Program-made: the position numbers and the translations under genes
Notes under the pieces: generated by a model
Seen by the model: the letters and a program-made list of their open reading frames with translations, nothing else
The model's database searches: none
What the model was told of the DNA's origin: nothing
Assembly (NCBI GenBank): GCA_964655465.1
Contig: CAZZND010000001.1
Span: 1-54,452, forward strand
Reading direction: 5' to 3'
Length of the DNA stretch: 54,452 bases
From: an uncultured Actinomycetes bacterium
Lineage (GTDB): Bacteria > Actinomycetota > UBA4738 > HRBIN12
In this document: in pieces, positions 5,911-54,186 of the stretch
How the letters are laid out: each line of letters opens with the position of its first letter
Numbering within the stretch: the first letter of the stretch is position 1

Positions 5911-5954
5911 GCGACACGAACGACCGGCGAACGTTCACCCGTGGGAGCGCGCGA

Positions 5955-5983: not shown

Positions 5984-6050
5984 ATCCGCGCGAACGGCCG
6001 GGAGAACTGGCCGGCACGGCGATCGGGGAGGGGAGCGTGAAGCGCTCGTC

Positions 6051-15965: not shown

Positions 15966-15987
15966 CGACATGAAAGGAGAGTTGCCC

Positions 15988-17085: not shown

Positions 17086-17116
17086 GAGTCGCGGGAAGGG
17101 GCGAAGAGGGAGCGCC

Positions 17117-17596: not shown

Positions 17597-17698
17597 ATGA
17601 GGCGGCCGATCGCCGAAATCCGGCATGCGACGGTGTCGGCGATGCGGGTCTTCGGCGCATCGCTCCCTTGCCCACACCGGGGGTCGTGGCTAGCGTCA

Positions 17699-17725
17699 CG
17701 ATCGGCGGGATCAGCCCGCCGATCG
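17699..17725 (+). other. Perfect 11-bp GC-rich hairpin immediately upstream of the RBS of the M20 gene
   Basis: CGATCGGCGGG-ATCAG-CCCGCCGATCG is followed by TGAGGGAGCG and GTG at 17736. Confidence 0.6.
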
Positions 17726-17735
17726 TGAGGGAGCG

Positions 17736-19966: not shown

Positions 19967-19978
19967 CTCATGGAGCGG

Positions 19979-20005
19979 AGCGGCCCGGTCTCGGACCGGG
20001 CCGCT
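19979..20005. terminator. Bidirectional stem-loop between convergent genes
   Basis: AGCGGCCCGGTC-TCG-GACCGGGCCGCT, a perfect 12-bp stem between the stops at 19966 (+) and 20013 (-). Confidence 0.65.
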
Positions 20006-20012
20006 GAGGCCG

Positions 20013-21551: not shown

Positions 21552-21568
21552 GGTCGACTGTCTACTAT
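21552..21568. promoter_or_regulatory. Phased GTNNAC operator (site 3) in a divergent promoter region
   Basis: GTCGAC-T-GTCTAC at 21553-21565. The plus-strand -10-like box is TACTAT (21563-21568). The minus-strand -10-like box is TAGACA (21564-21559), 7 nt before GTG 21551. Confidence 0.6.
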
Positions 21569-21636
21569 CTTCCGCCCGTCCCCAGCGCCGCTGCCGACCT
21601 GCCGGCGGCTCGGTACGGAGGGTGCCCGGAGGTGAC

Positions 21637-22518: not shown

Positions 22519-23393
22519 CCAGCGCAGCTGCTGCGCCTCACCGCCGTAGCCTCGCCGGGCCGTTCTACGCGGCGCTGCCCACGGCGGTGCTCCTGCTGCT
22601 GTTCGTGGGGCCGATGCTCATCCTGCTGTACTTCTCGTTCCAGGAGTCGCTGTTCGGCCAGGCGAAGGGCTGGACGTTCGACAACTACACGTCGATCCTG
22701 ACCGATCGCACCTACGGGAAGGTCATGCTCACCACCGTCACGATCTGCACGATCTCCATGCTGGTGATGCTCGCGATCGCGATCCCCATGGCCTACCTAC
22801 TCGCCTTCCGCCTGCGCCCGAAGATGGAGTTGCTGTTCCTCCTCCTGCTCGTGCTCTCCGAAGAGCTCAACCCGTTGATCCGGGTGTACGCCTGGCGCAC
22901 CATCTTGGGTCGGCAAGGAGTCGTGAACTTCCTTCTCATGAAGCTCGGGCTCATCGAACACCCGATCGACGTGCTGTTGTTCTCGAGCCTGGCGGTTGTC
23001 ATCGTCATGTCGACCACTTACGTGCCGTACACGACCATCCCGATCTACGCGGCGTTGAAGGCGGTGGACCCCTCACTTCTCGAGGCGGCGGACGATCTGG
23101 GGGCCTCGTTCGCGACGAGGTTCCGCAAGATCCTCCTTCCGCTCGCGGCGCCGGGGATCTTCGTGTCGATCATCTTGGTCTACATCCCCTTGTACTCGGA
23201 GTTCGCCGCGCCGTCGCTGGTCGGCGGGACCAGCGGCTACATGATCGGCAACGCCATCCAGGAGCAGATCCTGGAGGCGGGCAACCGCGGTGTCGGCGCG
23301 GCGATGAGCTTCATGTTGCTGGTGCTGTCGGGGGCGATCGCCTTCGCCGGGTACCGGCTCGGCAGGATCAAGCGGCTGCAAGCGACGGCATAG
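22512..23393 (+). CDS. ABC transporter permease (PotB-like), system 1
   Basis: In-frame GTG at 22512 overlaps the upstream stop. The product is a multi-TM protein with the EAA loop LEAADDLGASFATRFRKILLPLAAPGI. Confidence 0.85.
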   Translation: MVASAAAAPHRRSLAGPFYAALPTAVLLLLFVGPMLILLYFSFQESLFGQAKGWTFDNYTSILTDRTYGKVMLTTVTICTISMLVMLAIAIPMAYLLAFRLRPKMELLFLLLLVLSEELNPLIRVYAWRTILGRQGVVNFLLMKLGLIEHPIDVLLFSSLAVVIVMSTTYVPYTTIPIYAALKAVDPSLLEAADDLGASFATRFRKILLPLAAPGIFVSIILVYIPLYSEFAAPSLVGGTSGYMIGNAIQEQILEAGNRGVGAAMSFMLLVLSGAIAFAGYRLGRIKRLQATA

Positions 23394-23402
23394 GAGGACG
23401 AC

Positions 23403-24542
23403 GTGTCTGAGGCATCGGAGTCGCGGGGTGGCGGGCCCGCCATGCGGCTGGAGGGGGTGGTGAAGCGGTTCGGCGATGTCGTGGCGGTCGATCACATCGA
23501 CTTCGAGATCCGGCCGAGCGAGTTCTTCTCTTTGCTCGGTCCGAGCGGCTGCGGCAAGACCACGACCCTGCGCATGCTCGCAGGGTTCGAGCGCCCCACC
23601 GAGGGACGCATCCTGATCGACGAGGTCGACTCCGCCGATCTGCCGCCGCACCGCCGCGATACGAACATGGTGTTCCAGAGCTACGCGCTGTTCCCGCACA
23701 TGACCGTGGCGCAGAACGTGGCGTTCGGGCCGCAGCGCAAGCGGTTGGGGCGTGCGGAGGTCGAGAACGCCGTGCGTGAGGCTCTCGCCACGGTACGGAT
23801 GAGGGACTACGCCGGCCGCTACCCGCGCGAGCTCTCCGGCGGGCAGCAGCAGCGGATCGCGCTCGCGCGCGCGCTCGACGAGCCGCTCGGGGCGCTCGAC
23901 CTGAAGCTCCGCGAGGAGATGCAGTTCGAGTTGAAGCGCATCCAGCGCGACGTGGGGATCAGCTTCGTCTATGTCACGCACGACCAAGGTGAGGCCATCA
24001 CGATGTCGGATCGGATCGCCGTGATGAACGGCGGTCGTGTCGAGCACCTCGGCACACCCGAAGAGGTCTACCTGCGGCCCGCCACGCGGTTCGTGGCCGG
24101 CTTCATCGGGCAGGCGAGCTTCCTGCCGTGCCGCGTCGAGACCGCCGGCCGCGATAGCGCTCGTGTCGTGCTCCCCGGTGGGGTCCCCGCGACGGCCGGG
24201 GGTGCCGCGGCAGGGTGCGTCGCCGGCACCGAGGCCGTGCTGATGCTGCGCCCAGAGCACGTGCGGTTGAGCGCCGCCGATCCCGGCCGGCCCGGCTCGT
24301 TCCCGGCCCGTGTCGTCGAGCAGGTCTTCCAGGGCGCGGTGGTGCGCTACGGCCTCGAGGCCGCCGAAGGCGCGCGCCTCACGGCGATCACGCCGCTCGC
24401 CGACCGCCTCGACCCCGACGCAGGGGGCAACGCGTGGGTGAGCTGGTCCTCCGAGTGGGCGTACGTGTTGCCGGCCGAAGACGGGGGCGAGACGCCAGCA
24501 GAGCAGACGGCGAGGCTTCCCAGCGGCGACGTCGTGTCGTAG
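23403..24542 (+). CDS. ABC transporter ATP-binding protein (PotA-like), system 1, with a 9-aa deletion at Walker B
   Basis: It has Walker A [9 protein letters not shown], Q-loop [11 protein letters not shown], signature LSGGQQQR and H-loop YVTHDQ. The segment between the signature and DEP reads [14 protein letters not shown], whereas the paralog reads [23 protein letters not shown]. Confidence 0.85.
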   Translation: [379 protein letters not shown]

Positions 24543-24554: not shown

Positions 24555-25808
24555 TTGTCATCCACCCACGCTGATCTTGTGATCGCGGCGTTCGCGATCG
24601 ACGAGATCGTCGAGGGGACCCAGACAGGGCGGGACGGCACGACGCTGATCGTGTCGCCACCGCAGCTCGCGGTCGGAGCCGGGGAACCGGCACTGGCGGA
24701 GGCCACGGTCGAGGTCGTCCGTCCCGGCGATCGCGTCCGCATCTCGAACGTCCTCGATGCCGTGCTGCCCGACGTGCGCGCGGACGACCCCGTGTGCACG
24801 TTCCCGGGTGCCCTCGGCACCCTCAGCCCGGCGGGGAACGGCCGGTTGCATCGCCTGCGCGGGGTCGCGGTCCTGTCGGTCTGCGACTGGCAGGCCGCCG
24901 GCCACGTCGAGCCCGACGACTTCCCGGATTGCGTCGTGGACATGGACGGGCCGGGCGCGTCCCTCAGCCCCTGGGGCTCGACGTGCAACGTCGTCGTGCG
25001 GGCGGTGCCGGCGACCGGCGCGCCGGTCGCCGACGTAGATCGCGCGATCCGGCGCGCGACGCTTCGCGTCGCGCGCACCCTCGCCGAGACAACCATGGAG
25101 GCTGCGCCCGACGACGTGACCACCTTCGGACCGCTGCGCGCCGCGCCGGACGACCTGCCTCGCGTCGCGGCCATCCTGCAGGTCGCCTCCGAGGGTCCGC
25201 TGACCGACACGTTCTTCTACGGGGCGCCGATGGGCGGCCTGGTTCCCACCGTGATCGATCCCCGCGAACCGCTCGGTGGCGCGTTGATCAACGGGGCGTA
25301 CGACTGGCCGTCGGTCCGCAACCAGACGGCGACGTACCAGGACCTCGCGCTCGTCCACGAGCTGATCGCCGCCGACGGCGAGCGTCTGCGCTTCGCCGGG
25401 CTGATCGTGGCGCTCGGCTACCTCAGCACGGCGTTCGAGAAGCAGCGTTCGGCCATGCTGTCGGCGCGTCTCGCCCGTTCTCTCGGAGCCGACGCTGCGA
25501 TCTGCACGACGTTCTCGTCGGGCAACTCCCACACCGACACGATGCTCACCGTGCGCGCGCTCGAGCGTATGGACATCGCCGCGGTGCCGATCGTGGCCGA
25601 GACCAACGGCGGGCTCACCGACCACGTCCCCGAGGCCGTGAGCATCGTGAGCGTGGGGAACGAGGACGAGCTCGTCGAGGCGTGGACGCCCGACCGCGTG
25701 ATCGGGAGCGACGGGCCCGCGCGCGCCGGCGAGCCCGTCCCGACGTGGGCGTACCTCGGCGCGACGGTGCAGACCGGTGACGGATGGCTCCAGGCGGTGC
25801 CGGCATGA
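24555..25808 (+). CDS. Glycine/sarcosine/betaine reductase component B, GrdE/GrdG/GrdI-family subunit (no mid-protein Cys, so GrdI-like)
   Basis: 417-aa ORF. From memory it is collinear with GrdE-family proteins (VEVVRPGDRVRISNVLDAV...FPGALG...GRLHRLRGVAV; CVVDMDGPGASLSPWGSTCNVVV; SSGNSHTD...PIVAETNG). Its stop overlaps the start of the GrdB-like gene (ATGA). The start is uncertain: TTG 24555 or GTG 24579. Confidence 0.72.
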   Translation: MSSTHADLVIAAFAIDEIVEGTQTGRDGTTLIVSPPQLAVGAGEPALAEATVEVVRPGDRVRISNVLDAVLPDVRADDPVCTFPGALGTLSPAGNGRLHRLRGVAVLSVCDWQAAGHVEPDDFPDCVVDMDGPGASLSPWGSTCNVVVRAVPATGAPVADVDRAIRRATLRVARTLAETTMEAAPDDVTTFGPLRAAPDDLPRVAAILQVASEGPLTDTFFYGAPMGGLVPTVIDPREPLGGALINGAYDWPSVRNQTATYQDLALVHELIAADGERLRFAGLIVALGYLSTAFEKQRSAMLSARLARSLGADAAICTTFSSGNSHTDTMLTVRALERMDIAAVPIVAETNGGLTDHVPEAVSIVSVGNEDELVEAWTPDRVIGSDGPARAGEPVPTWAYLGATVQTGDGWLQAVPA

Positions 25809-27094
25809 CGGTCGTGCACTACCTCAACCAGTTCTTCGCCGGCCTCGGCGGCGAGGAGGTGGCCGGCCACGAACCGATCCGCCTCGACGGACCGCAGGGC
25901 CCGGGACGAGGTCTCGCGGCCGAGGGTCTCGACGTCGACGTCACCCTCGCCTGTGGCGACGATCATTTCGGTGAGCACGAGGACGAAGCGCTGCGGACCC
26001 TCCTCGGCTGGATCGACGAGCTCGATCCGGACGTGCTCGTCTGCGGGCCGGCGTTCGGCTCGGGTCGCTACGGCTACGCGTGCGGCGTGCTGGCGCGCGA
26101 GGCCGCGCGGCGCGGCGTGCCGGTCGTGACCGCGATGACGCCCGACTCGCCCGGGGTGCTCGCTGCCGAGGGCGCGGCGTACGTCGTGCCGACCACGTCC
26201 AATGTCGCCGGCATGCGGGCGGTGCTGCCCGTCGTGGCAGGGCTCGCGAAGAGGCTCGCCGCCGCCGAGGCCGTGGGGGGGCCCGAGGAGGAGGGCTACC
26301 TGCCGCGGGGGCTCCGCGCGAACGCGCGGGCCGATCGCCCGGGCGCCGCGCGCGCGATCGACCTGGCGCTCGCCCGCCTGGCCGGCGAAACGATGACCGA
26401 GGTCGAGCCCTCCGGCGATCGGGTACCGCCGCCGCCCGCGCTGACGGACCTCTCGGATGCCACGATCGCGCTCGTCACGGAGGCCGGCTGTGTGCCACAG
26501 GGCAATCCCGATCGCTTGCCCACGCGTCGCGCCAACGTGTGGTTGCGTTATCCGATCGATGGGGTCGCGTCGTTCACCGCCGACCGGTATCAGTCGGTCC
26601 ACGCTGGCTTCGACACGACCGCCGCGAACGAAGATCCCAACCGCCTGGTGCCGCTCGACGCCGCGCGCGCGTTAGAAGCGGCCGGCAAGTTCGGTCGCTT
26701 GCACGACGCGTTCTACACGACGTCGGGCGTCGACACGCCGGTGGCCACGGCCGCCAAGTTCGGGCGCGAGATCGCCGAGGAATGCCGCGAGGCCGGGGTG
26801 CAGGCCGTGATCCTGACAGGCACCTGAGGGACAGGAACGCGTTGCGGGGCAACGCTGTCGAAGGAGTTGGAGCGGATGGGGATCCCGACCGTGTTCATCA
26901 CGGCGCTCCCGACCATCGCGCAGATGGTGGGCGCCAACCGGATCATGCGCGGTGTCTCGATCACGCACCCCACGGGCGACCCGTCGCTCGCGGCTGGGGA
27001 CGAGCTCGCACTTCGCACCGCGATGCTCGACCGCGCCCTGGACATGCTGCAGACCGACGTCGGGCCGCTGACGGTGTGGGAGGTCGAACGCTGA
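25805..27094 (+). CDS. grdB: Selenoprotein B of a Grd-type reductase (GrdB/GrdF/GrdH family); TGA 26825-26827 decoded as selenocysteine
   Basis: The N-terminus MTVVHYLNQFFAGLGGEE is the hallmark GrdB start. ORF 25784..26827 ends ...AVILTGT at a TGA. The same frame continues GTGTRCGATLSKELERMGIPTVFITALPTIAQMVGANRIMRGVSITHPTGDP..., which includes the 75-aa ORF 26867..27094. This reproduces the U-x2-C-x2-C Sec motif of GrdB. The product is 429 aa with Sec at residue 341. The symbol is family-level only. Confidence 0.88.
26838..26857 (+). other. Candidate bacterial SECIS hairpin for the GrdB-like UGA
   Basis: The 7-bp stem GCGTTGC/GCAACGC (26839-26845 and 26849-26855) has a G-rich apex (GGG). 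It starts about 11 nt after the UGA, and C26838:G26857 extends it across a bulged T. Confidence 0.55.
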
Positions 27095-27095
27095 C

Positions 27096-28409
27096 GTGAC
27101 CACCCCCGCGATCCTCGGCGCCAGTCTGACCCTGCAGCACGTGCCCGACCTCGTGCGGCACGGGTCCAAACCGGCGCGCGAGCCCGACCTGCTGCCCCGG
27201 TTGCTCACGTCGCTCAGGACCTACGACGACGCCGTCGCGTACCCGCCGCATCAGGTGTTCATCGGCAACCTCTCGCCGCGCGCGCTCCGTGACCTGCCTC
27301 GGCCGTGGTGGCGCGACGCGCCTCCCGCGCCCGAGGACGGGCCGAGCGGGCAGATCGTCGATGAGGCCACGTTCTACGAGTGGCTCGCCGCGCTCGACCG
27401 GTTCGAGCTGGTGCGCATGAAACAGGAGCCTCGTCCCGGAGATCTGCCACTGTACGCAGGCGGAGAAGTCATCGGCGCGTTCGCGCCTGGCCACGACCAG
27501 GACGAGTCGCTCACCGCCTCGGTGCTGCTCGAGAACCTGTCGTGCCTGGTGAGCGCGACGTCCGCGACCCGCCACCTGCTGACCGCCTCCGGTGTCGATC
27601 CCGCGTCGATCACCCATGTGATCGCCTGCGGCGAAGAGGCGATCGGCGACCGCTACCAGCGTGGCGGCGGCAACCTCGCGAAGGCGGTCGCCGAGGCCTG
27701 CGACCTGACCGAGGCCAGCGGCGCCGACGTGAAGGCGTTCTGTGCGGGCCCGATCCACGCGCTGATCGTCGCCGGGGCGCTCGTCGCCTCCGGCGTGCAC
27801 GACCGGGTCGCCGTCGTGGCCGGCGGATCGCTCGCCAAGCTCGGCATGAAGTTCCTCGGGGCGCTCGAGACCGGTGGGCCGATCATCGACGATACCCTCG
27901 CGGGGATGGCCGTCTTGGTGGGCCGCGCCGAGGACGATCCGTCTGCGCCGGTCATGCGCATGGACGCGATCGGACGCCACCGCACCGGCTCGGTCTCGCA
28001 GCAGGCCTTGCTGGAGGACATCGTCGGTGGACCGCTGGATGCGATGGGTATCGGCATCGCCGACATCGATGTCTACGCGACGGAGCTGCACAACCCCGAG
28101 GTCACCGAGCCCGCCGGCGGCGGCGACGTGCCCGACCGCAACTACCGGATGCTCGCGGGGCTCGGGGTCGTTCGAGGCGAGCTCGAGCGCGAGGCGATGG
28201 CCACGTTCGTGCACGACCACGGCTTGCCCGGCTTCTCGCCCACGCAGGGGCATATCGCCTCGGGCGTGCCCTGGCTCCCGCACGCGCTCGCGCGGTTCCG
28301 CGCGCGCGACCTCGACCGAACGATGTTGCTCGCCAAAGGCAGCCTGTTCCTCGGGCGGATGACGCGGCTGTGGGACGGCGCCTCGATCACCATGGAGGCC
28401 CAACGATGA
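27096..28409 (+). CDS. grdC: Grd reductase component C, beta subunit (GrdC-like, thiolase/KAS-III-like fold)
   Basis: 437-aa ORF with a GTG 2 nt after the GrdB stop. These blocks match my recollection of GrdC: ASLTLQHVPDLVRHG, AYPPHQVFIGNLSP..PWW, ACGEEAIGDRYQRGGGNLAKAV, DVKAFCAGPIHALI, EPAGGGDVPDRNYRML, GLPGFSPTQGHIASGVPW and KGSLFLGRMT. Confidence 0.75.
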   Translation: MTTPAILGASLTLQHVPDLVRHGSKPAREPDLLPRLLTSLRTYDDAVAYPPHQVFIGNLSPRALRDLPRPWWRDAPPAPEDGPSGQIVDEATFYEWLAALDRFELVRMKQEPRPGDLPLYAGGEVIGAFAPGHDQDESLTASVLLENLSCLVSATSATRHLLTASGVDPASITHVIACGEEAIGDRYQRGGGNLAKAVAEACDLTEASGADVKAFCAGPIHALIVAGALVASGVHDRVAVVAGGSLAKLGMKFLGALETGGPIIDDTLAGMAVLVGRAEDDPSAPVMRMDAIGRHRTGSVSQQALLEDIVGGPLDAMGIGIADIDVYATELHNPEVTEPAGGGDVPDRNYRMLAGLGVVRGELEREAMATFVHDHGLPGFSPTQGHIASGVPWLPHALARFRARDLDRTMLLAKGSLFLGRMTRLWDGASITMEAQR

Positions 28410-28762
28410 ACGTCAGCGCCGAGACCTACGACGTCCTCGCGACGAGCGGCCACGTCTTCCTCGACGTGTGGGGTCCGCAGTGCCAGCCGTGCATCGCGAT
28501 GATGCCGGCGATCGACGATCTGGCGCGCCGTTACGACGGCCGGGTCAAGGTCTTGAAGCTCGAAGGGCCCGAGCACCGCGAGCTGTGCCGCTCGCTCCGC
28601 GTGGCCGGTCTGCCCACCTACATCACGATGCGCGACGGCGGCGAGGTCGAACGCCTGACCGGCAACGGGCTCACGTTCACCGACCTGGAGGCCGCGATCG
28701 AGCGGCTGCTGGACGGCGCCCCCGTGGTGGGGCTCCCCGTTCCCGAACACCTGAGGGGGTGA
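28406..28762 (+). CDS. Thioredoxin-family protein with an atypical CQPC active site
   Basis: ATG at 28406 overlaps the GrdC stop (ATGA). It reads FLDVWGPQCQPCIAMMPAIDDLARRYDGRVKVLKLE...GLPTYITMRDGGEV, a Trx fold with CQPC in place of CGPC. Length 118 aa. Confidence 0.85.
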   Translation: MNVSAETYDVLATSGHVFLDVWGPQCQPCIAMMPAIDDLARRYDGRVKVLKLEGPEHRELCRSLRVAGLPTYITMRDGGEVERLTGNGLTFTDLEAAIERLLDGAPVVGLPVPEHLRG

Positions 28763-28773
28763 ATACGAGATCC

Positions 28774-29232
28774 ATGGAACTTCGAGGCAAGAAGGTGATC
28801 GCCCTCGGCGAGCGCGACAGCGTGCCCGGCGAGGCGCTCGCCGAGGTCGCCCGCTCGGCGGGCGCCGAGGTCATCGAGGTGCGCACGGAGTGCTTCGTCT
28901 GAACAGCTTCCGGTGCGATGGATCCTGAGAACCAGGGACTGATCAAGGGGATCGTCGAGGAACACGGCTCCGCCGACCTGGTCGTGCTGCTGGGCGCAGC
29001 CGACGAGGACGCGGTGGAGGTCGCGGCCCAGACGGTCCGTGAGGGCGATCCCTCGTACGTGGGTCCACTCGCCGGGGTCCAGTTGGGACTCCCCGTGCTG
29101 CACGTCTTCGAGGACCAAGTGAAGGAGCAGGCCGACCCGGTCGTCTACGAGGAGCAGGTCGGTTTCTTCGTGCTGTCCTTCGACACCGGCGCGATCATCC
29201 AGGCGATGCGGCGGGCCCGTGGCGAAGCCTGA
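28774..29232 (+). CDS. grdA: Glycine/sarcosine/betaine reductase complex selenoprotein A (GrdA); TGA 28900-28902 decoded as selenocysteine
   Basis: MELRGKKVIALGERDSVPGEALAEVARSAGAEVIEVRTECFV-[TGA]-TASGAMDPENQ...VVLLGAADEDAVEVAAQTVREGDPSYVGPLAGVQLGLPVLHVFE. The CFV-U-TAxGAMD motif and GPLAGVQLGLPV are diagnostic of GrdA. The ORF track splits the gene into the end of 28468..28902 and 28918..29232. The product is 152 aa with Sec at residue 43. Confidence 0.92.
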
Positions 29233-29258
29233 CGCGGCGGGCCCGCCCCTGGGTCCGC

Positions 29259-30455
29259 TCAGGATCGAAGACCGAGCTCACGGCCGACGCGGCCGAAGAT
29301 GGCGATGGCCTCGTCGAGATCGTCGTCAGTATGGTCCGCGGTCACGATGGTGCGCACGCGCGCCCGACCCTTCGCCACCGTCGGGAACACGATCGCCGGG
29401 GCGAACACCCCGGCGTCGAACAGCGCGGCGGCGAACGCCTGGGCCGTCGACTCGTCGCTGGTGATCACCGGGGTGATCGGGGTCTCCGACCCGCCCGTGT
29501 CGAACCCGAGCCCGGCCAGCCCCTCCTTGGATCGTGCGGTGTTCGTCCACAGGCGCTCGAGCCGCTCGGGCTCGTCGCGCATGACGCCGAGCGCCTCGAG
29601 GCATGCCGCCGCCACCGCGGGCGGCGTCGATGTCGAGAACAGGTACGGACGCCCGCGTTGTCGCAACCACTCGATGAGGTGGGCCGGGCCCGCGATGAAC
29701 CCGCCGAGCACGCCGATCGCCTTCGACAGCGTCCCCACCTGGATGTCGACGCGGCCGTGCAGGCCGAAGTGGTCGACCGTGCCTGCGCCGCCCGCGCCGA
29801 GGACCCCGCTCGCGTGTGCATCGTCGACCATCATGATCGCGCCCCGCCGCTCGGCGACCTCGACCAGGTCCGGCAGGGGCGCGATGTCGCCGTCCATAGA
29901 GAACACGCCGTCGGTGATCAGCAGCTGCCGGCGGGCCTCGCCGGCGGTCTCGGCCAACAGACGCTCGGCATGGGCGGCGTCGGCGTGCTCGTAGACCTCG
30001 ATCCTGGCCTTCGACAACCGGGCGCCATCGATGATCGACGCGTGGTTGAGCCGGTCGGACACGATCACGTCCTCGGGCCCCAAGATCGCGGCGACGGTGC
30101 CGGCGTTCGCGGCGAACCCCGACTGGAACATCAGCGCCGCTTCCGCGTGTTTGAAGGCGGCGAACCGTTCCTCCAACTCGACGTGCAGGTCCATCGTCCC
30201 CGCGATCGTTCGGACCGCCCCCGAGCCGGCGCCCAGGTCGCGGGCAGCCCGTGCCGCCGCCTCGTTGAGGCGCGGATGGTTCGCGAGACCCAGGTAGTTG
30301 TTCGACGCGAGGTTGATCACCTCGCGACCGTCGAAGGTCGCGCGGGCTCCGGTCGGGCCGGACAAGGTGCGCGACCGCAGGAGCAGCCCGTCGGCCTCGA
30401 GGCTGGCGACCTCGTCGCGGAGGAACGCGAGCCGGTCCACGGATCCAGCTGACAT
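29259..30455 (-). CDS. kbl: Glycine C-acetyltransferase (2-amino-3-ketobutyrate CoA ligase), Kbl/BioF family
   Basis: ATG at 30455 (MSAGSVDRLAF...) gives 398 aa. Blocks are NLASNNYLGLANHP, VRTIAGTMDLHVELE, VSDRLNHASIIDG, DDAHASGVLG and GTLSKA (PLP Lys). The LNHASIIDG block and the length favour Kbl over BioF. Confidence 0.78.
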   Translation of the reverse strand: MSAGSVDRLAFLRDEVASLEADGLLLRSRTLSGPTGARATFDGREVINLASNNYLGLANHPRLNEAAARAARDLGAGSGAVRTIAGTMDLHVELEERFAAFKHAEAALMFQSGFAANAGTVAAILGPEDVIVSDRLNHASIIDGARLSKARIEVYEHADAAHAERLLAETAGEARRQLLITDGVFSMDGDIAPLPDLVEVAERRGAIMMVDDAHASGVLGAGGAGTVDHFGLHGRVDIQVGTLSKAIGVLGGFIAGPAHLIEWLRQRGRPYLFSTSTPPAVAAACLEALGVMRDEPERLERLWTNTARSKEGLAGLGFDTGGSETPITPVITSDESTAQAFAAALFDAGVFAPAIVFPTVAKGRARVRTIVTADHTDDDLDEAIAIFGRVGRELGLRS

Positions 30456-30469
30456 GGTCGACAGTCTAC
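30456..30469 (-). promoter_or_regulatory. Phased GTNNAC operator (site 5a) with -10 TAGACT, directly abutting the kbl start codon
   Basis: The minus strand reads TAGACT-GTCGACC-ATG. The plus strand reads GTCGAC-A-GTCTAC at 30457-30469. The geometry fits a leaderless transcript. Confidence 0.6.
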
Positions 30470-30505
30470 CGTCATGGATGGCAACCCCAGGTGGTGTTGT
30501 CACCG

Positions 30506-30521
30506 GTTGACGGTCTACCAT
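30506..30521 (+). promoter_or_regulatory. Phased GTNNAC operator (site 5b) with -10 TACCAT, 6 nt upstream of the GntR start
   Basis: GTTGAC-G-GTCTAC at 30506-30518. TACCAT at 30516-30521 is followed by GGGTGC and ATG 30528. Confidence 0.6.
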
Positions 30522-30527
30522 GGGTGC

Positions 30528-31196
30528 ATGACGCAACTCACTCCACTGGAGGTGCCTCGTTCCCTCGCCGAGGACGCCGCCGACCGCGTTCGGGAACAGA
30601 TCCTGTCCGGCGGATTCGCCCAGGGCGAGCACCTCGTTGAAGCGAAGATCGCCGAGCAGCTCGGGATCAGCCGCGGGCCGGTGCGCGAAGCCTTCAAGCT
30701 GCTGCGCGCCGAGGGCCTACTGCAGGAAGAGCCCCGGCGTGGGACCTTCGTGGTACGGATGGTGCCGGACGATGTGCGCGAGATCTACGGGCTCCGGGCC
30801 TCGATCGAAGGACGGGCCGCCCGGATGGTGGCGGGAGCGCGAGACGACGATGTGCTCGGAAGGCTTCGGACGAGACTCGGCGCGATCGACGACGCCGTCC
30901 GGAGCGGCGACGCTGCCGCGGTGTTCCAGGCAGACCTGGCGTTCCACCAGGAGATGGTCGCCCTGGCCGGCAACAGCAGGATCGCCGAGGTGTTCGCCAG
31001 GTACGTGCCGACGCTCCGAGCGTTGCTCCGGCTCGATGAGCATGTCTACCGTTCGCTCGACGACATCGCGATGGAGCACCGGCCGTTGTTCGAGGCTATC
31101 GAAGCCGGAGACGCCGACGAAGCTGCTCGGCTCGCCGAGCAACACTGCGACCACGCGGGCGACCTGATCGCCGACTACGTCGAAAGCGGCGGGTAG
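30528..31196 (+). CDS. GntR-family transcriptional regulator (FadR/VanR-like, FCD ligand domain)
   Basis: Starts MTQLTPLEVPRSLAEDAADRVREQILSGGFAQGEHLVEAKIAEQLGISRGPVREAFKLLRAEGLL (GntR wHTH). The C-terminal region is all-helical and FCD-like. I chose ATG 30528 over 30474 because of the promoter geometry. Confidence 0.85.
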   Translation: MTQLTPLEVPRSLAEDAADRVREQILSGGFAQGEHLVEAKIAEQLGISRGPVREAFKLLRAEGLLQEEPRRGTFVVRMVPDDVREIYGLRASIEGRAARMVAGARDDDVLGRLRTRLGAIDDAVRSGDAAAVFQADLAFHQEMVALAGNSRIAEVFARYVPTLRALLRLDEHVYRSLDDIAMEHRPLFEAIEAGDADEAARLAEQHCDHAGDLIADYVESGG

Positions 31197-31306: not shown

Positions 31307-32431
31307 ATGCGTCGTCGATCTCTCGGTGCGGTCGCCTTGGCAGCGACCTTCGCGATCTTCTCGGCGGCGTGTTCGTCCGACACGACGCCGTCCGAACCCA
31401 CGAGCTCGGCGGGCGGGACCGCGACCGCAGCCCCCTCGGGCCCCCTGCGGTTGTTCTCCTACAGCGACGGGTTCGATCCGACCTACATGGAGACGTTCTT
31501 CGAGGAGTACCCCGACATCGAGCTCGAGACCGCCGCGTTCGGGTCGAACGACGAAGCCATCGCCAAGCTCCTCGCGGGCTTCGAGGCCGACGTCGTGAAC
31601 AGCTGTGTCGACGAGGCAACCCTTGAGATGGTGACCAGGGGTCTGTACCAGCCGCTGGATCTGTCGCGTCTCGAGCATTGGGAAGAGCTCTTCCCGTCGA
31701 TGAAGGAGCTTCCCGGCGTCGTGGTGGATGGGCAGGCATACATCGTGCCGGTCGATGCCGGCACCGCAGGGATCATGTACGACGCCGACGTGGTCACCGA
31801 GACGCCGGATTCATGGCTCGACCTGTTCGACCCGCAGTGGGCGGACCGCGCCTCGATTGAAGACCTGTCCGTGACCGCGATCGACATCGGCGCCCTCGCG
31901 ACGGGCATCACCGACCCGATCGGCATGGATGAGGCGCAGCTGGAGCAGGTCAAGCAGTTCCTCATCGACAACCGTGGTCAGTTCCGCACGTTCTGGAAGG
32001 GCGAAGCGGACATCAAGGCACAGTTCAAGAACGGCGAGGTGGTGATCGCGAGCGGGTATCCCGGCACCGCGAAGTCTCTCCGGGATCAGGGCGTGAACGT
32101 CCAGTTCGCGCAGGCGTCGGAGGGTCAGCCGCTGTGGACGTGCGGCTACGGGATCAGCCCCGAGGCCGAGAACCTCGACGCCGCGTACGCGCTGCTGAAC
32201 TGGTACACGAGCCTTCCCCCGCAGATCTACGCGGCCGAGAACTTCAGCTATGTCACGTCGAACAGCAAGATCGTCGACGAGGTGTCCGAGGACGTGCTCA
32301 ACGCCACGGGGATCATGCGCTTCGTCACCGGAGCTGACGGCGCCCCCGCCGACGTCAACCTGATCCCGGCGAGCCCGCCTGAAGACTCAGAGGCCTGGCG
32401 CGCGGCCTGGACCGAGGTCAAGGCGTCGTAG
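31307..32431 (+). CDS. ABC transporter substrate-binding lipoprotein, PotD/PotF family, paralog 4
   Basis: 374-aa ORF preceded by the RBS GGGGAGGG. The signal peptide ends IFSAACSS. It is collinear with SBP paralogs 1-3. Confidence 0.9.
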   Translation: MRRRSLGAVALAATFAIFSAACSSDTTPSEPTSSAGGTATAAPSGPLRLFSYSDGFDPTYMETFFEEYPDIELETAAFGSNDEAIAKLLAGFEADVVNSCVDEATLEMVTRGLYQPLDLSRLEHWEELFPSMKELPGVVVDGQAYIVPVDAGTAGIMYDADVVTETPDSWLDLFDPQWADRASIEDLSVTAIDIGALATGITDPIGMDEAQLEQVKQFLIDNRGQFRTFWKGEADIKAQFKNGEVVIASGYPGTAKSLRDQGVNVQFAQASEGQPLWTCGYGISPEAENLDAAYALLNWYTSLPPQIYAAENFSYVTSNSKIVDEVSEDVLNATGIMRFVTGADGAPADVNLIPASPPEDSEAWRAAWTEVKAS

Positions 32432-33330
32432 TGGCCATCGCCGCCGAGCGAGGCCTGCCGCCGCTCGCGGCTCCCGGCACCGACGCGCTGCGGCGGCGCC
32501 GTGCCGCCGGGCGGTGGGCCTGGCGCGCGTTCCTCGGCGTCGTCGGGCTCGTTCTGTTCGGGCCCCTGCTGATCCTCGTCGCGTTCGCGTTCAGCGATTC
32601 GAACATCCTCGCCTTCCCGTTCGAAGGTGTCACGACCCGCTGGTTCACGGCGGTGTTCGACGACGCGCTCCTGCGGAAGGCGCTCGTGAACTCCTTCGTG
32701 ATCGCCGCCATCGTCACGCCGGTCTGTCTGGTCTTGGGGACCCTCGCCGCGTTCGGGCTGACCCGCTTCCGCTTCCGTGGCCGAGGTGCGGTCGGCGGTC
32801 TGGTCGCCGCGCCGCTCGTGCTGCCCTGGCTCCTTATCGGGATCGCCGCGTTGATGGCGTACGCCAGGCTGGACATCGAACTGTCGCGTGGCACGGTCAT
32901 CGTCACGCAGATCGTGTGCACGTTCCCGCTGGTCACGGCCATCGTCGCGGCGCAGCTGTTCCGGTTCCAGCGAACCCAGGAAGAGGCCGCGATCGACCTC
33001 GGCTGCTCGCGGCTTCAGGTATTGCGCTACATCATCTTGCCGCACATCGGTCCTGCCCTCGCCGCGGCGGCGATCTTCGCGTTCACCTGGTCGTTCAACA
33101 ACTACGAGATCAGCCTGTTCACGATCGGATTCGACATGACCTTCCCGATCTGGGTGTATTCGTCGGTCCGCAACCCCGACCACACCGCCGTCGTCAACGC
33201 CGTCTCCACGCTGATCTCGGCGGCGCAGGTGGTGCTGATCGTGATCGCGGTGCAGCTTCTGCGGGCCAGAGGCGGCAGCGTGCACGCCATGGCGGGCAGC
33301 GAGATGGCGACGGCGGCGGCGAAGACCTGA
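32431..33330 (+). CDS. ABC transporter permease (PotC-like), system 2
   Basis: 299-aa ORF whose GTG overlaps the upstream TAG by 1 nt. The EAA loop is EEAAIDLGCSRLQVLRYIILPHIGPAL. It is collinear with 21637-22518. Confidence 0.85.
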   Translation: MAIAAERGLPPLAAPGTDALRRRRAAGRWAWRAFLGVVGLVLFGPLLILVAFAFSDSNILAFPFEGVTTRWFTAVFDDALLRKALVNSFVIAAIVTPVCLVLGTLAAFGLTRFRFRGRGAVGGLVAAPLVLPWLLIGIAALMAYARLDIELSRGTVIVTQIVCTFPLVTAIVAAQLFRFQRTQEEAAIDLGCSRLQVLRYIILPHIGPALAAAAIFAFTWSFNNYEISLFTIGFDMTFPIWVYSSVRNPDHTAVVNAVSTLISAAQVVLIVIAVQLLRARGGSVHAMAGSEMATAAAKT

Positions 33331-34214
33331 TGGCTGCCACCGACCCCGGCATCGTCCGTCCCGCGTTCGGGCGTCCTCTCCGGCGCCACGGCGGCGCGGT
33401 CGGGATCTTGTTCGCACCCGTCACGCTGCTCGTGATCTTGTTCCTCGGGCCGATGCTGATCATGGTGCAGATGAGCGTCGTCAGGTTCCCGCCGAGCACC
33501 GCCGGGGGCTACACGCTCGGGCATTACGCCGACGTGCTCACGAACGAGCTCAACCGCACCATCGCGGTCAACACCGCGTTCATCGCAACGACCTCGATGA
33601 TCGTCATGCTCGCGATCGCGATCCCGCTCGCGTACTACCTGGCGTTCAAGGCGCGGAAGTGGGAGCTCTGGATGTTGCTCGCGCTCGTCCTGGCCGACGA
33701 GCTCGCGCCCGTCGTGAAGATCTACGCCTGGCAGGTGATCCTCGGCCGCAACGGGATCGCGAACTACCTGATCCCGGGCGAGCCCGTGGACTGGCTCATC
33801 TACAGCCGGTTCGCCGTCATCCTCACGCTCGCGACCACCTACATCACGTACACCACGATCCCGATCTACGCGGCGATGAAGGCGATCGACCCCACGGTGT
33901 TCGAGGCGTCGACCGACCTCGGGGCCGGCTGGTGGCCACAGGCCCGGCGCATCCTGATCCCTCTGGCCGCCCCGGGCATCTTCATCGCTCTGATCCTCGT
34001 GTACATCCCGATGCTCACGGACTTCGTTACCTCCGACATCGTCGGCGGCGCGGGCGGGGGCACGTACATGCTGGGCCAGCGCGTGCGCGACCTGATCCTG
34101 CAGGGCGCGAACTGGGGTCCCGGCGCAGCGCTCAACTTCCTGCTCCTGATCACGTCCGGGGTGCTCGCCCTGGCCGCCTACCGACTCGCCAAGCTGAACA
34201 GGATCCAGACATGA
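33330..34214 (+). CDS. ABC transporter permease (PotB-like), system 2
   Basis: ATG at 33330 overlaps the upstream TGA. The EAA loop is FEASTDLGAGWWPQARRILIPLAAPGI. It is collinear with 22512-23393. Confidence 0.85.
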   Translation: MAATDPGIVRPAFGRPLRRHGGAVGILFAPVTLLVILFLGPMLIMVQMSVVRFPPSTAGGYTLGHYADVLTNELNRTIAVNTAFIATTSMIVMLAIAIPLAYYLAFKARKWELWMLLALVLADELAPVVKIYAWQVILGRNGIANYLIPGEPVDWLIYSRFAVILTLATTYITYTTIPIYAAMKAIDPTVFEASTDLGAGWWPQARRILIPLAAPGIFIALILVYIPMLTDFVTSDIVGGAGGGTYMLGQRVRDLILQGANWGPGAALNFLLLITSGVLALAAYRLAKLNRIQT

Positions 34215-35365
34215 CCGCACGCACGCAGGGCGCTGGAGAGCTCGTCGTCGACAGATGCACGAAGGCGTTCGGCGATGTCGTCGCCGTGAATGACGTCACC
34301 CTCGAGATCCCGAGCGGTGGGTTCTTCTCGATGCTCGGTCCGTCGGGATGCGGCAAGACCACGACCCTCAGGATGATCGCGGGTTTCGAGACGCCCGACC
34401 GCGGGAGGATCCTCCTCCGCGGCGGCGACGTCACGGGGCTGCCTCCGCAGCGCCGCGACGTGAACATGGTCTTCCAGTCCTACGCCCTGTTCCCCCACAT
34501 GACGGTCGCCGAGAACGTCGCGTTCGGGCTCAAGATCAAGCGGGTCGCTCGCGCCGAGGTTGGCCCCCGCGTGGAGGAGGCGCTTCGAACCGTCCGGCTC
34601 GACGGCCTCGCTGACCGTCGCCCGAGCCAGCTGTCGGGGGGTCAGCAGCAGCGGGTCGCCCTCGCTCGCGCGCTCGTCAATCGCCCGGCCGCGTTGCTGC
34701 TCGACGAGCCGCTGGGGGCCCTCGATCTGCAGCTGCGCAAGGAGATGCAGCTCGAGCTCAAGCAGTTGCAGGTGCGTACCGGAACGACGTTCGTCTATGT
34801 GACCCACGACCAGGAAGAGGCGATGACCATGTCGGATCGCATCGCGGTCATGAGCGGCGGCGTCGTCGAACAGCTGGCCCCGCCGCGCGAGCTCTACCAG
34901 CGCCCGGCCACCCCGTTCGTCGCTGGATTCATCGGCGTGTCCAACCTGATCGAGCTCCGCGTCGACGATCGCGCCGATGGGCGGCTGATCATGCGCATCG
35001 GAGAGGGCGAGCGGATCTTGGCCGTGGACCCCGGCGGGGTCGACGGGAGCGCGACCATCACCGTGCGCCCCGAATGGATCCGGCTCGCCCCGAGCGGTGC
35101 GTCGACGGACGACGGCTCCTCGTCGGTCACCGGCACGGTGTCCGACGTCGTGTACCTCGGCTCCGTCACCCAGGTGCTCGTCGACCTCCGGACGGGGGAG
35201 CGCCTCACGGTGCACCGGCTCAACGACGAGGTGGCTGCCGTGGATCCTCGTCCCGGCGACGAGGTCGTCCTACGATGGGCCGCCGAGCACAGCTACGTGA
35301 TCGGGTCCCCAGGCGCGGGTACGGAAGAGGAAGCGAGCCCCGTCGGGGCGCGAGGAGAGGGGTAG
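34211..35365 (+). CDS. ABC transporter ATP-binding protein (PotA-like), system 2 (intact Walker B)
   Basis: ATG at 34211 overlaps the upstream stop (ATGA). It has GPSGCGKTT, LSGGQQQRVALARALVNRPAALLLDEPLGALD and YVTHDQ. Confidence 0.9.
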   Translation: MTARTQGAGELVVDRCTKAFGDVVAVNDVTLEIPSGGFFSMLGPSGCGKTTTLRMIAGFETPDRGRILLRGGDVTGLPPQRRDVNMVFQSYALFPHMTVAENVAFGLKIKRVARAEVGPRVEEALRTVRLDGLADRRPSQLSGGQQQRVALARALVNRPAALLLDEPLGALDLQLRKEMQLELKQLQVRTGTTFVYVTHDQEEAMTMSDRIAVMSGGVVEQLAPPRELYQRPATPFVAGFIGVSNLIELRVDDRADGRLIMRIGEGERILAVDPGGVDGSATITVRPEWIRLAPSGASTDDGSSSVTGTVSDVVYLGSVTQVLVDLRTGERLTVHRLNDEVAAVDPRPGDEVVLRWAAEHSYVIGSPGAGTEEEASPVGARGEG

Positions 35366-35369
35366 ACCG

Positions 35370-36689
35370 ATGGCCAGGTTGAGCGCGAGCCAGATCGTTG
35401 AGATGTCCAAGCGGTACACGATGTTCGACTGGCAGGCGCAGTCCAAGGTTTCGCCGATCCCCGTGGAGCGCGCCAAGGGGGTCTATTTCTGGGACGTCGA
35501 CGGCAAGCGCTACCTGGATCTCAACAGCCAGCTATGGAGCGTGAACGCGGGGCACGGCGACCCGCGCATCGTGGCGGCGATCGCCAAGCAGGCCGAGCGC
35601 CTCGCGTTCATCTCGCCGTTCCAGACCTACGAGGAGCGGGCGCTGCTCGGCCAGAAGATGGCGGAGCTCCTTCCGGGAGACATCGAGAAGACCTTCTTCA
35701 CGCTGGGTGGGGCAGAGGCGAACGAGAACGCGGTCAAGATCGCGCGCATGGTGACGGGTCGCCACAAGATCCTCGCGCGCTACCGCTCGTACCACGGCGC
35801 CACCACCGGAACGATGACGCTCACGGGTGATCCGCGCCGCTGGCCGCACGAGCCCGGGCTCAGCGGCGTGGTGCACGTGCTGGACCCCTATCACGGTCCC
35901 GGACGCCCGTGGGACGATGCGGAGACGGCGCTCGCGCTCCTGGAGGAGACGATCGAGCTCGAGGGGCCCGAGTCGATCGCGGCCTTCTTCCTGGAGACGA
36001 TCACCGGCACGAACGGCGTTCTGATCCCGCCCGATGGCTACCTGCAAGGGGTTCGTGCGCTCTGCGACCGCTACGGGATCCTGATGGTGTGCGACGAGGT
36101 CATGTGCGGCTTCGGGCGCACCGGGGAGTGGTTCGGAGTCAACCACTGGGGCATCGTCCCCGACCTGATGTCGATGGCGAAGGGACTCACGTCCTCCTAC
36201 GTCCCGCTCGGGGCCCTCGGGCTGCGGCCCCACGTCGCGGCCCACTTCGAGGACAACGTGTTCGGAGCGGGGCTCACCTACAACAGCCATCCGGTTGGGG
36301 TCGCCACCGCGCTCGCCACGATCGCCGTCTACGAAGAGGACGGCCTGGTCGAGAACGCGAAGAAGATGGGCGAGGTCATGGCTCGTCACCATCAGGAGCT
36401 GAAGGCGAAGCACCCGAGCGTGGGCGACGTGCGCAGCATCGGGCTGTTCGGCGTGATCGACCTCGTGAAGTCGCAGGCCACCGGAGAGCCGATGTCGCCG
36501 TTCAACGTCACGAACGAGGTCATGGGCAAGATCAACCGTTACCTGCTCGATCACGGGGTCGCGACGGTGGTCCGGTGGTGGAGCGTGAACACCAACCCGC
36601 CGCTGTGCATCGACGAGGAGCAGCTCGGCGAGGCCTTCGAGGTGCTCGACCAGGCGCTGGTGATCGCCGACGAAGCCATGGAGGACTGA
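35370..36689 (+). CDS. Class-III (omega) aminotransferase, paralog 3
   Basis: 439-aa ORF. It has SYHGATTGTMTLTG, CDEVMCGFGRTGEWFG and the PLP-lysine block SMAKGLTSSYVPLG. Confidence 0.88.
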   Translation: MARLSASQIVEMSKRYTMFDWQAQSKVSPIPVERAKGVYFWDVDGKRYLDLNSQLWSVNAGHGDPRIVAAIAKQAERLAFISPFQTYEERALLGQKMAELLPGDIEKTFFTLGGAEANENAVKIARMVTGRHKILARYRSYHGATTGTMTLTGDPRRWPHEPGLSGVVHVLDPYHGPGRPWDDAETALALLEETIELEGPESIAAFFLETITGTNGVLIPPDGYLQGVRALCDRYGILMVCDEVMCGFGRTGEWFGVNHWGIVPDLMSMAKGLTSSYVPLGALGLRPHVAAHFEDNVFGAGLTYNSHPVGVATALATIAVYEEDGLVENAKKMGEVMARHHQELKAKHPSVGDVRSIGLFGVIDLVKSQATGEPMSPFNVTNEVMGKINRYLLDHGVATVVRWWSVNTNPPLCIDEEQLGEAFEVLDQALVIADEAMED

Positions 36690-54092: not shown

Positions 54093-54093
54093 G

Positions 54094-54186
54094 CGGAGGC
54101 GGACGGGAATCGAACCCGCCAGGGGGCTCGTCGCCCCCTCATCGGTTTTGAAGACCGAGGGGCCCACCAGGAACCCGGACGCCTCC
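54094..54186 (-). tRNA. selC: tRNA-Sec (anticodon UCA)
   Basis: The reverse complement reads GGAGGCGT-CC-GGGTTC-CTGGT-GGGCCC-C-TCGGT-CTTCAAA-ACCGA-TG-AGGGGGC-GACGA-GCCCCCT-G-GCGGG-TTCGATT-CCCGT-CCGCCTCC-G. Features are a 7-nt anticodon loop with UCA, a 6-bp D stem, a long variable arm (7-bp stem), a TTCGATT T-loop and discriminator G. It is 93 nt long and no CCA is encoded. A TAGCCT -10-like box (54199-54194) lies 7 nt upstream of the 5' end. Confidence 0.93.

Follow-up and report, generated by a model that had tools for sequence, protein, structure and literature searches.

A distal hairpin and a long-range helix as a candidate bipartite SECIS element in the grdA gene of an uncultured actinomycete

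Contig CAZZND010000001.1 (assembly GCA_964655465.1), from an uncultured Actinomycetes bacterium, carries grdA, the gene of selenoprotein A (GrdA), in which selenocysteine (Sec) is encoded by an in-frame UGA codon. The stretch analyzed comprises 54,452 bases with 69.6% G+C and is called the window below. Our analyses suggest that this UGA may be decoded by means of a bipartite selenocysteine insertion sequence (SECIS), made of a distal hairpin, D1, and a long-range helix, rather than by an adjacent hairpin, and we give this reading a probability of about 0.6. It is nearly certain that D1 and the long-range helix form a real and strongly selected structure. Beyond its existence, conservation and selection, we infer that SelB binds D1 and that the structure directs Sec insertion.

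Identity of the grdA gene

The grdA coding sequence occupies positions 28774..29232 of the + strand and has 152 codons, including Sec43, plus a stop codon. It starts with ATG 28774, has an in-frame TGA as codon 43 (28900-28902, +), within the motif C-F-V-U, and ends with TGA 29230-29232. An earlier note made from the letters alone had placed the gene and the UGA codon in this way and had remarked that the list of open reading frames (ORFs) splits the gene into 28468..28902 and 28918..29232. We reproduced its coordinates and translation exactly and found the same split. The note had also called the gene a canonical grdA and had proposed a search with the Pfam GRDA model. Read through with Sec as Cys, the product matched that model (PF04723) end to end, with 183.1 bits (E = 3.4e-54, cutoff 22) and residues 3-149 aligned on positions 1-147 of the 147-position profile. 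It also matched the NCBIfam equivalog for selenoprotein A, NF040748, with 185.9 bits against a cutoff of 130.

The redox motif C-x-x-U is present as C40-F-V-U43, with Sec provided by the in-frame UGA, and the GPLAGVQLGLPV block is present as well. Together with the full-length matches, the surrounding grd operon and a tRNA-Sec gene bear out the identification. At the level of sequence, the read-through product is thus confirmed as an ordinary new member of GrdA, whose nearest relatives come from metagenome-assembled genomes of uncultured Actinomycetes and are at most 81% identical. The public annotation of the contig holds just a 104-aa C-terminal fragment of it (P0001).

A conserved hairpin far downstream of the Sec codon

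For comparison we used 80 related loci (L001-L080) from species-representative genomes, giving 81 sequences with the window. These loci come from at least seven phyla and include members of Actinomycetota, Thermoleophilia, Chloroflexota, Rokubacteria, Deltaproteobacteria, Bacillota and Treponema. The entropy of synonymous codons was scanned along the gene without prior assumption on position. There was no dip at codons +1 to +24 after the Sec codon of grdA, and a single one at codons +50 to +59, which is the GPLAGVQLGLPV block. The same scan recovered the SECIS of grdB, the gene of a second selenoprotein in the window (codons +5 to +9, -1.11 bits).

In the window, D1 is a SECIS-like hairpin, GGGGUCC-AGUUG-GGACUCC, at 29074..29092 (+). 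It has seven base pairs, including one G-U pair, with its loop at 29081-29085 and a predicted energy of -10.5 kcal/mol; the consensus is GG(A/G)GUCC-AGUUG-GGACUCC. At least six of the seven pairs were found in 71/81 loci, at a fixed offset of 174 nt from the UGA (171 nt in five). Helices were perfect in 51 of 72 loci, compared with 2.13 expected from the loci's own codon usage for the same amino acids. The codons that build D1 are rare for these genomes: Leu UUG in 49/58, Gly GGA in 33/58, Leu CUC in 53/58 and Val GUC in 44/50. The loop Leu codon was UUR in 71/72 loci (10.5 expected) and in 40/40 GC-rich loci (2.5 expected). Loops in D1-positive loci read AGUUG (36), CGUUG (27), AGUUA (7) or AGCUU (1), and follow the pattern N-G-U-U-N. 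Where Ser or Pro replaces Gln, a G-U-U triloop is closed by C-G on an 8-bp stem. Directly after D1, Pro CCC was preferred (39/58).

Variation in D1 is of the A/G and C/U type and retains G-U pairing in the sense strand alone; the antisense strand folds less stably (-6.6 compared with -10.5 kcal/mol). D1 is therefore an RNA feature, and its reading as a DNA palindrome or operator was rejected. With a covariance model of D1 and strand 2 of the long-range helix (see below), we searched both strands of the window and of 99 metagenome loci (698 kb). The model hit grdA only: 62 hits scored at least 29.9 bits, and everything else scored 24.8 bits or less. The window contained a single hit, at 29061-29094 (50.9 bits), and the others occurred once per locus in 61 loci. 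Hits checked by hand lay 161 nt after the TGA in L086, L087 and L130, and 176 nt after it in L128, which has an insertion after the Sec site.

Bacterial SECIS elements are described by the bSECIS rules, which we applied as a loop of 3-9 nt, a stem of 4-16 bp, a distance of 16-37 nt from the UGA and an energy of -7.5 kcal/mol or lower, with G within the first two positions of the loop, followed as a rule by G or U (PMC13188914). D1 obeys the loop, stem, G-position and energy rules with its 5-nt loop, 7-bp stem and -10.5 kcal/mol. It fails the spacing rule, as 178 nt of linear sequence (28903-29080) lie between the UGA and the loop.

The grdB genes of the same loci served as a positive control for SECIS detection. 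In the window, grdB has a canonical hairpin, GCGUUGC-GGG-GCAACGC, at 26839..26855 (+), 11 nt past its UGA (-9.0 kcal/mol). The grdB hairpin complied with every bSECIS rule, at a single position, in 47/56 loci, and a hairpin occupied the SECIS position in 56/56 (z about 15 relative to synonymous shuffles). Its codons were frozen across phyla, with Ala GCA in 49/49, Cys TGC in 56/56 and Thr ACG in 34/37. Rfam SECIS_4 (RF01990) matched the homologous grdB element in the Bacillota loci L054 and L060 with about 60 bits. The grdB SECIS of the window remained below the gathering score of this model, and SECIS_4 appears to be tuned to low-GC sequences; tRNA-Sec was the only Rfam match of the window at gathering score. 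Comparison of minimum free energies (MFEs) with dinucleotide or synonymous shuffles is powerless in GC-rich coding DNA: the clear grdB SECIS itself scores z about 0, so weak MFE z-scores after the grdA UGA count neither for nor against a signal. The entropy of synonymous sites and the occupancy of hairpins by position do reveal the grdB SECIS.

A long-range helix between the UGA and D1

Codons just 5' of D1 were skewed as well, with Gly GGT observed 55 times (12.3 expected), Pro CCA 39 times (8.5 expected) and Leu TTR 56 times (10.2 expected). Their sequence, GGUCCAUUGGC, is the complement, apart from one bulged base, of GCNAUGGAYC, found at nt 16-25 past the UGA. From an alignment of 73 sequences and no other input, RNAalifold predicted both this long-range helix and D1 de novo. 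In the window, strand 1 (GCGAUGGAUCC, in Ala-Met-Asp-Pro codons) lies at 28915..28925 (+), after a spacer of 12 nt (28903..28914, +) that separates the UGA from the first conserved helix in the ungapped alignments A2 and A3. Strand 2, GGGUCCA[C]UCGC, lies at 29061..29072 (+) in Val3-Gly-Pro-Leu-Ala codons, has a bulged C at 29068, and is indicated by codon skew and covariation. Between the strands, a domain of 135 nt (28926..29060, +) is looped out. It forms an imperfect rod in the MFE and centroid folds of the window, and just two 2-bp helices are predicted in it across lineages (columns 86-87:94-95 and 154-155:160-161).

All 11 pairs of the long-range helix form in the window, with a duplex energy of -15.4 kcal/mol, and 89.2% of the cells are paired over the 73 sequences. 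For the full model of 11 + 7 pairs the value was 91.6%, compared with 25-60% when the partners were slid by 1-3 columns. Cells changed on both sides numbered 34, against 5.8 +/- 6.3 in shuffles, and 0/500 shuffles reached 34. Compensatory changes within the long-range helix occurred at pairs 27-180 (C-G 38, G-C 4, U-A 2), 32-174 (A-U 58, G-C 4) and 35-171 (C-G 30, U-A 23).

Folding of single sequences gave the same picture. The unconstrained MFE structure of the window from the UGA to +210 contains the whole model, with -105.3 kcal/mol, equal to the enforced model. Pair probabilities were 0.70-1.0 in the long-range helix and 0.71-0.76 in D1, and the fold of 28903-29100 (-104.7 kcal/mol, z = -3.2) had a centroid identical to its MFE structure. 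Both elements were present in the single-sequence MFE structures of 67% of the 73 loci and of 0.3% of the synonymous shuffles. The MFE structure of the window adds an outer helix, 28904-28913 with 29093-29100 (CAGC...CGG with CCG.GCUG), which closes a three-way junction that holds the long-range helix and D1. When the UGA occupies the A site, this outer helix lies inside the footprint of the ribosome. It might account for the preferred Pro CCC codon after D1.

Lineages that lack D1

In all eight Dehalococcoidia loci the codons at both sites are ordinary: none has a perfect D1 helix (0/8) or a UUR loop codon (0/8), and 5-7 of the 11 long-range pairs form. All eight carry an 8-bp proximal hairpin, CUUGACCU-KGA-RGGUCAAG, with its loop at nt 27 and energies of -10.3 to -12.4 kcal/mol.

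As the peptide patterns used to fetch the first set of loci overlap the structure, we drew an independent sample from metagenomes with a pattern limited to the Sec site. It comprised 105 GrdA-like genes, of which 95 were analyzable and fell into 53 clusters at 80% nucleotide identity. D1 was found in 75/95 sequences and 40/53 clusters. Some variants had both arms changed and the register shifted and encoded other amino acids, for instance GAGACCC-GGUU-GGGUCUC, which encodes E-T-R-L-G-L.

Among the 20 sequences without D1, seven had strong proximal hairpins of unrelated sequence, ten had another downstream hairpin and three had none of the elements. Proximal hairpins in D1-less genes include GACCUUGA-GGU-UCAAGGUC, GGCCAU-GGAC-AUGGCC and a stem of -28 kcal/mol; the D1-less loci with such hairpins are L038, L040-L045, L061 and L063; L097, L100 and L116; L119/L196; L113/L205; and L139. 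The presence of at least four unrelated proximal SECIS-type hairpins in D1-less lineages suggests repeated re-invention.

The ten sequences of the second group carry the hairpin AGCUGCUG-GUC-UAGCAGCU, or compensated variants of it, at +111 to +129 and have no proximal hairpin. A downstream hairpin with a G-U loop was observed in the AT-rich D1-less lineages L120, L121, L136, L147, L182, L157, L114, L144 and L152. Its variants, AGCUGCA-GGUCU-UGCAGCU, AGCAGCA-GGUCU-UGCUGCU and CUGCCG-GUC-UGGCAG, differ by compensatory changes at synonymous sites. In the consensus fold of L120, L121, L136, L147 and L182, five AT-rich sequences that are closely related, this hairpin directly follows a domain closed by long-range pairing.

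A bipartite SECIS as the proposed recoding signal

The structure suggests how a distant hairpin might act on the UGA. D1, which has the size and obeys the loop rule of a SelB-binding hairpin, lies 174 nt past the UGA in linear sequence. The 11-bp long-range helix would return it to the vicinity of the UGA through a 1-nt linker between strand 2 and D1, and D1 would emerge at the UGA-proximal end of this helix with the 135 nt looped out. With a ribosome on the UGA, the long-range helix would start where a canonical SECIS stem does (12 nt, compared with 11 nt in grdB). Counted through the helix, the D1 loop would be about 12 + 1 + 7 = 20 nucleotide equivalents from the UGA, inside the 16-37 range. 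While a ribosome pauses at the UGA, a slow step, the 200 nt beyond it would be free to fold.

With little more than even confidence, we extend this proposal to most grdA genes, which would use a natural bipartite SECIS with a hairpin about 58 codons past the Sec codon docked by a long-range helix. The lineages concerned would be Actinomycetota, Thermoleophilia, Chloroflexota, Rokubacteria, Bacillota, Spirochaetes and Deltaproteobacteria, and those that lost the bipartite element would have re-invented proximal hairpins several times.

Several points weigh against a bipartite SECIS. Ribosomes translating the 135-nt loop must melt the long-range helix, which would need to refold during the wait at the UGA. 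The GUU of the D1 loop differs from the GGG loop of grdB. Conserved amino acids already dictate seven of the 11 long-range pairs, and the weight falls on the four others and on the codon skew. The swap in Dehalococcoidia is a single evolutionary event. D1 and proximal hairpins are not strictly exclusive, as D1 coexists with a bSECIS-compliant proximal hairpin in 7/40 clusters, and the association by cluster is modest (a proximal hairpin in 6/13 D1-less and 7/40 D1-positive clusters). The three sequences with none of the elements also count here. The association between loss of D1 and a proximal hairpin is real but not strict. As to precedent, no distal or helix-bridged grdA SECIS and no D1 sequence were found in the literature covered, which leaves out the grdA cloning papers of the 1990s and the bSECISearch paper, so an earlier description is possible.

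It may be that D1 and the long-range helix are real and selected but serve a function other than Sec insertion, the true signal lying elsewhere or being weak and lineage specific. The structure might make the ribosome pause so that folding can proceed, govern the stability or processing of the mRNA, or act as a regulator responsive to SelB or selenium, comparable to the SECIS-like element that lies upstream of selAB in E. coli. The spacing of D1, far outside the bSECIS range, would fit such a role, as would its coexistence with compliant proximal hairpins and the few genes with none of the elements. Nevertheless, the long-range helix begins 12 nt past the UGA, within one nucleotide of the position of the grdB SECIS stem, and the D1 loop obeys the G-[G/U] rule of bSECIS. 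D1 is also lost exactly where strong proximal hairpins or other downstream hairpins with a G-U loop appear, and no other candidate signal was found after the UGA under any constraint. We consider such another function unlikely, while giving it more weight than the explanations that follow.

The region next to the UGA

After the UGA of grdA, RNAalifold found no consensus structure over the 81 sequences. Just 16/81 genes complied with the bSECIS rules, at scattered positions, and in the window no proximal element did, the best candidate having -7.0 kcal/mol instead of the required -7.5. Four-fold sites at codons +1 to +5 were nearly free (entropy of 1.56-1.92 bits). In the clade of the window, which has Pro at codon +8, no proximal helix was kept (0-5/35). 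The Rfam SECIS families (RF00031, RF01988-RF01991) gave no match in 28700-29300 at E values up to 10 and none at gathering score in the whole window, and in L054 and L060 SECIS_4 matched grdB and never grdA. As judged from the sequences, the absence of a canonical proximal SECIS from the clade of the window is confirmed. The earlier note had found the SECIS not obvious and possibly non-canonical; this impression holds, since neither a rule-compliant nor a clade-conserved proximal element was found.

The imperfect stem drawn in that note at 28908..28938 (+), with seven pairs and a bulged A, did not survive. It exists only as the MFE structure of a 51-nt excerpt and is not conserved, with 58.7% of cells paired over the 81 sequences and 60.0% in shuffles. 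It is absent from the fold of the full region. Its 5' arm (28908-28914) adjoins strand 1 of the long-range helix (28915-28925), which would have to fit inside its 16-nt loop.

Other proximal candidates were rejected as well. Helix A (nt 11-15:24-28) paired at the level of column shuffles, and helices A' (11-15:23-27) and A'' (9-13:20-24) either did so or had an excess that tracks clade composition. The pairing of helices A' and B (24-28:33-37) slightly exceeded that of shuffles, an excess that follows clade composition in both. Within clades, no covariation was found at synonymous pairs (helix A, p = 0.15 and 0.70; both A' pairs, p = 1.0), two of these tests being trivial as one column is invariant in the clade. 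Helix B is plausible in lineages of the Leu type and impossible in the Pro clade of the window. Hairpin H3 (GAUC-AAGGG-GAUC, nt 42-54) recurs in just 14/35 sequences of the closest clade and stems from Leu-Ile-Lys-Arg-Ile codons, and in the long-range model its region is absorbed into the rod of the looped-out domain.

A working proximal SECIS might be seen in the weak hairpin UCCUG-AGAAC-CAGGG at 28923..28937 (+), the counterpart of helix B in Leu-type relatives, with the distal structure merely assisting, for instance by raising the local SelB concentration or slowing the ribosome. Its geometry is bSECIS-like (25-nt spacing, 5-nt loop, G second in the loop). For helix B, 78.5% of cells are paired and covariation is slightly in excess, and it is fully formed in 19/44 Leu-type sequences. 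However, the hairpin of the window reaches only -4.6 kcal/mol against the threshold of -7.5. The central pair is impossible in the Pro clade (0/35), and a shifted version needs the rare CCU codon, present in 2/35. The covariation excess of helix B tracks clade composition (Pro or Leu, AT or GC), there is no synonymous constraint on the proximal region, and the hairpin shares 28923-28925 with the conserved long-range helix. We judged this hairpin not functional, and a working SECIS at this place is improbable.

Evidence that the Sec codon is genuine

All 81 aligned sequences have TGA at the Sec column, as have the 105 GrdA genes of the metagenomic sample. Four further ENA contigs of less than 1 kb (L082-L085), with apparently full-length database GrdA, read TGC, TGC, TGT and GGA at this codon. 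Each of these is one base from TGA, one would place Gly at the catalytic position, and the distal hairpin is retained in all four. The names of two of the contigs record a coverage of 1.4-1.7x. The four are most likely read errors, selected because they yield a full-length ORF. According to older literature, true Cys homologues of GrdA do not exist (PMC1088965, PMC1794560). The use of Cys forms of GrdA as a natural test for hairpin loss was thus uninformative, as the four hits keep the hairpin and are most likely read errors.

Were the TGA due to a sequencing error or a pseudogene lesion, or were it a real stop codon, no recoding signal would be needed. The 104-aa public gene call and these four contigs could be cited for this idea, but the comparative sequence data refute it. 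TGA occurs in 81/81 and in 105 independent sequences, and the reading frame is conserved before and after it. The window also contains tRNA-Sec and, in grdB, another Sec gene. The four exceptions are single-base differences on short contigs, with low recorded coverage for two of them. A sequencing error, named in the earlier note among the things that would undo its reading, is ruled out on the same grounds.

The grd operon and its surroundings

The operon has the order grdE-grdB(Sec)-grdC-trx-grdA, with all genes on the + strand. A grdE-like proprotein gene for the alpha and beta subunits of component B lies at 24555..25808 (+) (PF09338, Gly_reductase, 248 bits). It is followed by the grdB-family selenoprotein B gene at 25784..27094 (+), with its Sec TGA at 26825-26827 (TIGR01918, 414 bits), and by grdC, for the beta subunit of component C, at 27096..28409 (+) (NF040746, 499 bits against a cutoff of 450). 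The thioredoxin gene lies at 28406..28762 (+) (PF00085, 48.6 bits). The gene for tRNA-Sec, selC, is on the - strand at 54093..54186 (RF01852, 76.2 bits; anticodon TCA by ARAGORN). No selA, selB or selD was found in the window, which ends 266 nt past selC. From family membership, GrdA would be a small carrier protein: its Sec43 would accept the carboxymethyl group of protein B (GrdE/GrdB) in the form of a selenoether, be reduced by thioredoxin and pass the product to protein C.

Some components are unusual. The thioredoxin has a modest Pfam score (48.6 bits) and the active site C-Q-P-C instead of C-G-P-C, and its start overlaps the grdC stop in an ATGA. The GrdE-like proprotein is very divergent, with 152 bits to GrdG (cutoff 780) and 98 bits to the fluoroacetate reductase FarE. 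GrdB has U-G-T-G-T-R-C (UxxGxxC) in place of the classic UxxCxxC, as do 33/56 grdB genes of the related loci. The only GrdB model passed was the subfamily model TIGR01918, and all substrate-specific ones remained below their cutoffs (TIGR01917 for glycine, 380/602; GrdF, 412/800; GrdH, 375/775). As the glycine-, sarcosine- and betaine-specific models are far from their cutoffs, the models assign no substrate to the reductase.

Neither grdD nor trxB was found anywhere in the 54-kb window; they may lie elsewhere in the genome. GrdD is the alpha subunit of protein C and presumably carries the acetyl-thioester cysteine. A Bacillota GrdD query found grdD in just 14/81 loci, while GrdC was found in 70, and there was no grdD within +/-6 kb in 17 sampled actinobacterial, Thermoleophilia, Chloroflexota and deltaproteobacterial loci. 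The order grdE-grdB-grdC-trx-grdA may represent an operon type without grdD.

Convergent to grdA lies a glycine C-acetyltransferase-like gene of the BioF/Kbl family (29259-30632, -; TIGR01825, 553 bits), and in L001 grdA is directly followed by an ORF that equals this gene in size (457 aa) and orientation. Nearby genes also encode a GntR regulator and a Zn-dependent dehydrogenase (30474-31196, +, and 47557-48657, -). The three genes are compatible with a supply of glycine from threonine to the reductase. The regions 5733-13161, 14880-24542 and 31307-36689 are rich in genes for the catabolism and uptake of amines and amino acids. The surroundings contain two flavin amine oxidases, four class-III aminotransferases, two M20 peptidases (and a third at 48713-49879) and PotABCD-like ABC transporter components, including five solute-binding-protein genes. 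A gene of the agmatine deiminase type (PAD_porph) lies at 39850-40884.

Relation to known SECIS elements and significance

Like known GrdA systems, the one described here has a full-length family match, the C-x-x-U motif with a UGA-encoded Sec, the GPLAGVQLGLPV block and an operon with grdE, a Sec-containing grdB, grdC and thioredoxin. It differs from them in its high-GC host, an uncultured actinomycete-type bacterium, in the lack of grdD and trxB in the 54 kb, and in a GrdB with UxxGxxC that matches a subfamily model only.

D1 resembles canonical bacterial SECIS elements (the E. coli fdhF type, the bSECIS model and SECIS_4) in its 7-bp stem, its 5-nt loop with G at the second position followed by U, and its -10.5 kcal/mol. 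It shares a 7-bp stem and a G-led loop with the grdB SECIS of the window, and the first helix begins 12 nt past the UGA in grdA and 11 nt in grdB. Unlike the canonical elements, D1 is not contiguous with the UGA: an insertion of 135 nt splits the strands of the basal helix, and D1 hangs from the 3' strand. Its linear spacing of 178 nt compares with 16-37 nt in those elements, and no Rfam model matches. The candidate recoding element is bacterial in kind, because D1 obeys the stem, loop and energy rules of bSECIS, and yet it fails the spacing rule that defines such elements. An engineered SECIS in the 3' untranslated region was reportedly used in E. coli by Su, Li and Gladyshev in 2005; the bacterial element is said to function there untranslated, while still needing its normal short distance from the UGA. 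Unlike that construct, grdA has a natural arrangement in which a helix bridges a long distance in sequence.

Recent literature places the SECIS elements of bacteria immediately downstream from the UGA (PMC13449736). In archaea and eukaryotes, SECIS elements in 3' untranslated regions act well over a hundred nucleotides from the UGA (PMC13188914), and the candidate grdA signal is likewise distant. Unlike these elements, it lies inside the coding sequence, has a bacterial-type hairpin and neither a GA quartet nor a GAA_A bulge, and is apparently tethered to the UGA by base pairing, not by adaptor proteins.

GrdA is a central selenoprotein of Stickland-type amino acid fermentation, including that of gut pathogens and oral spirochaetes, and grdA is among the genes most often misannotated as truncated, of which the public record of this contig is an instance. 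If our proposal is right, the grdA element would be the first bacterial SECIS in nature that does not directly follow its UGA, and it would explain the resistance of grdA to SECIS prediction. The rule of the adjacent SECIS would then have a widespread natural exception, and selenoprotein finders based on SECIS elements, which search about 40-60 nt, would by their construction miss this class. Some further selenoprotein genes that do not fit the bSECIS model may work likewise. To express GrdA in other hosts or to design cassettes for Sec insertion, one would have to include the 200 nt downstream instead of a local hairpin alone. The grdA gene also offers a natural system for asking how far from the UGA, and by means of what RNA architecture, SelB can be presented to the ribosome.

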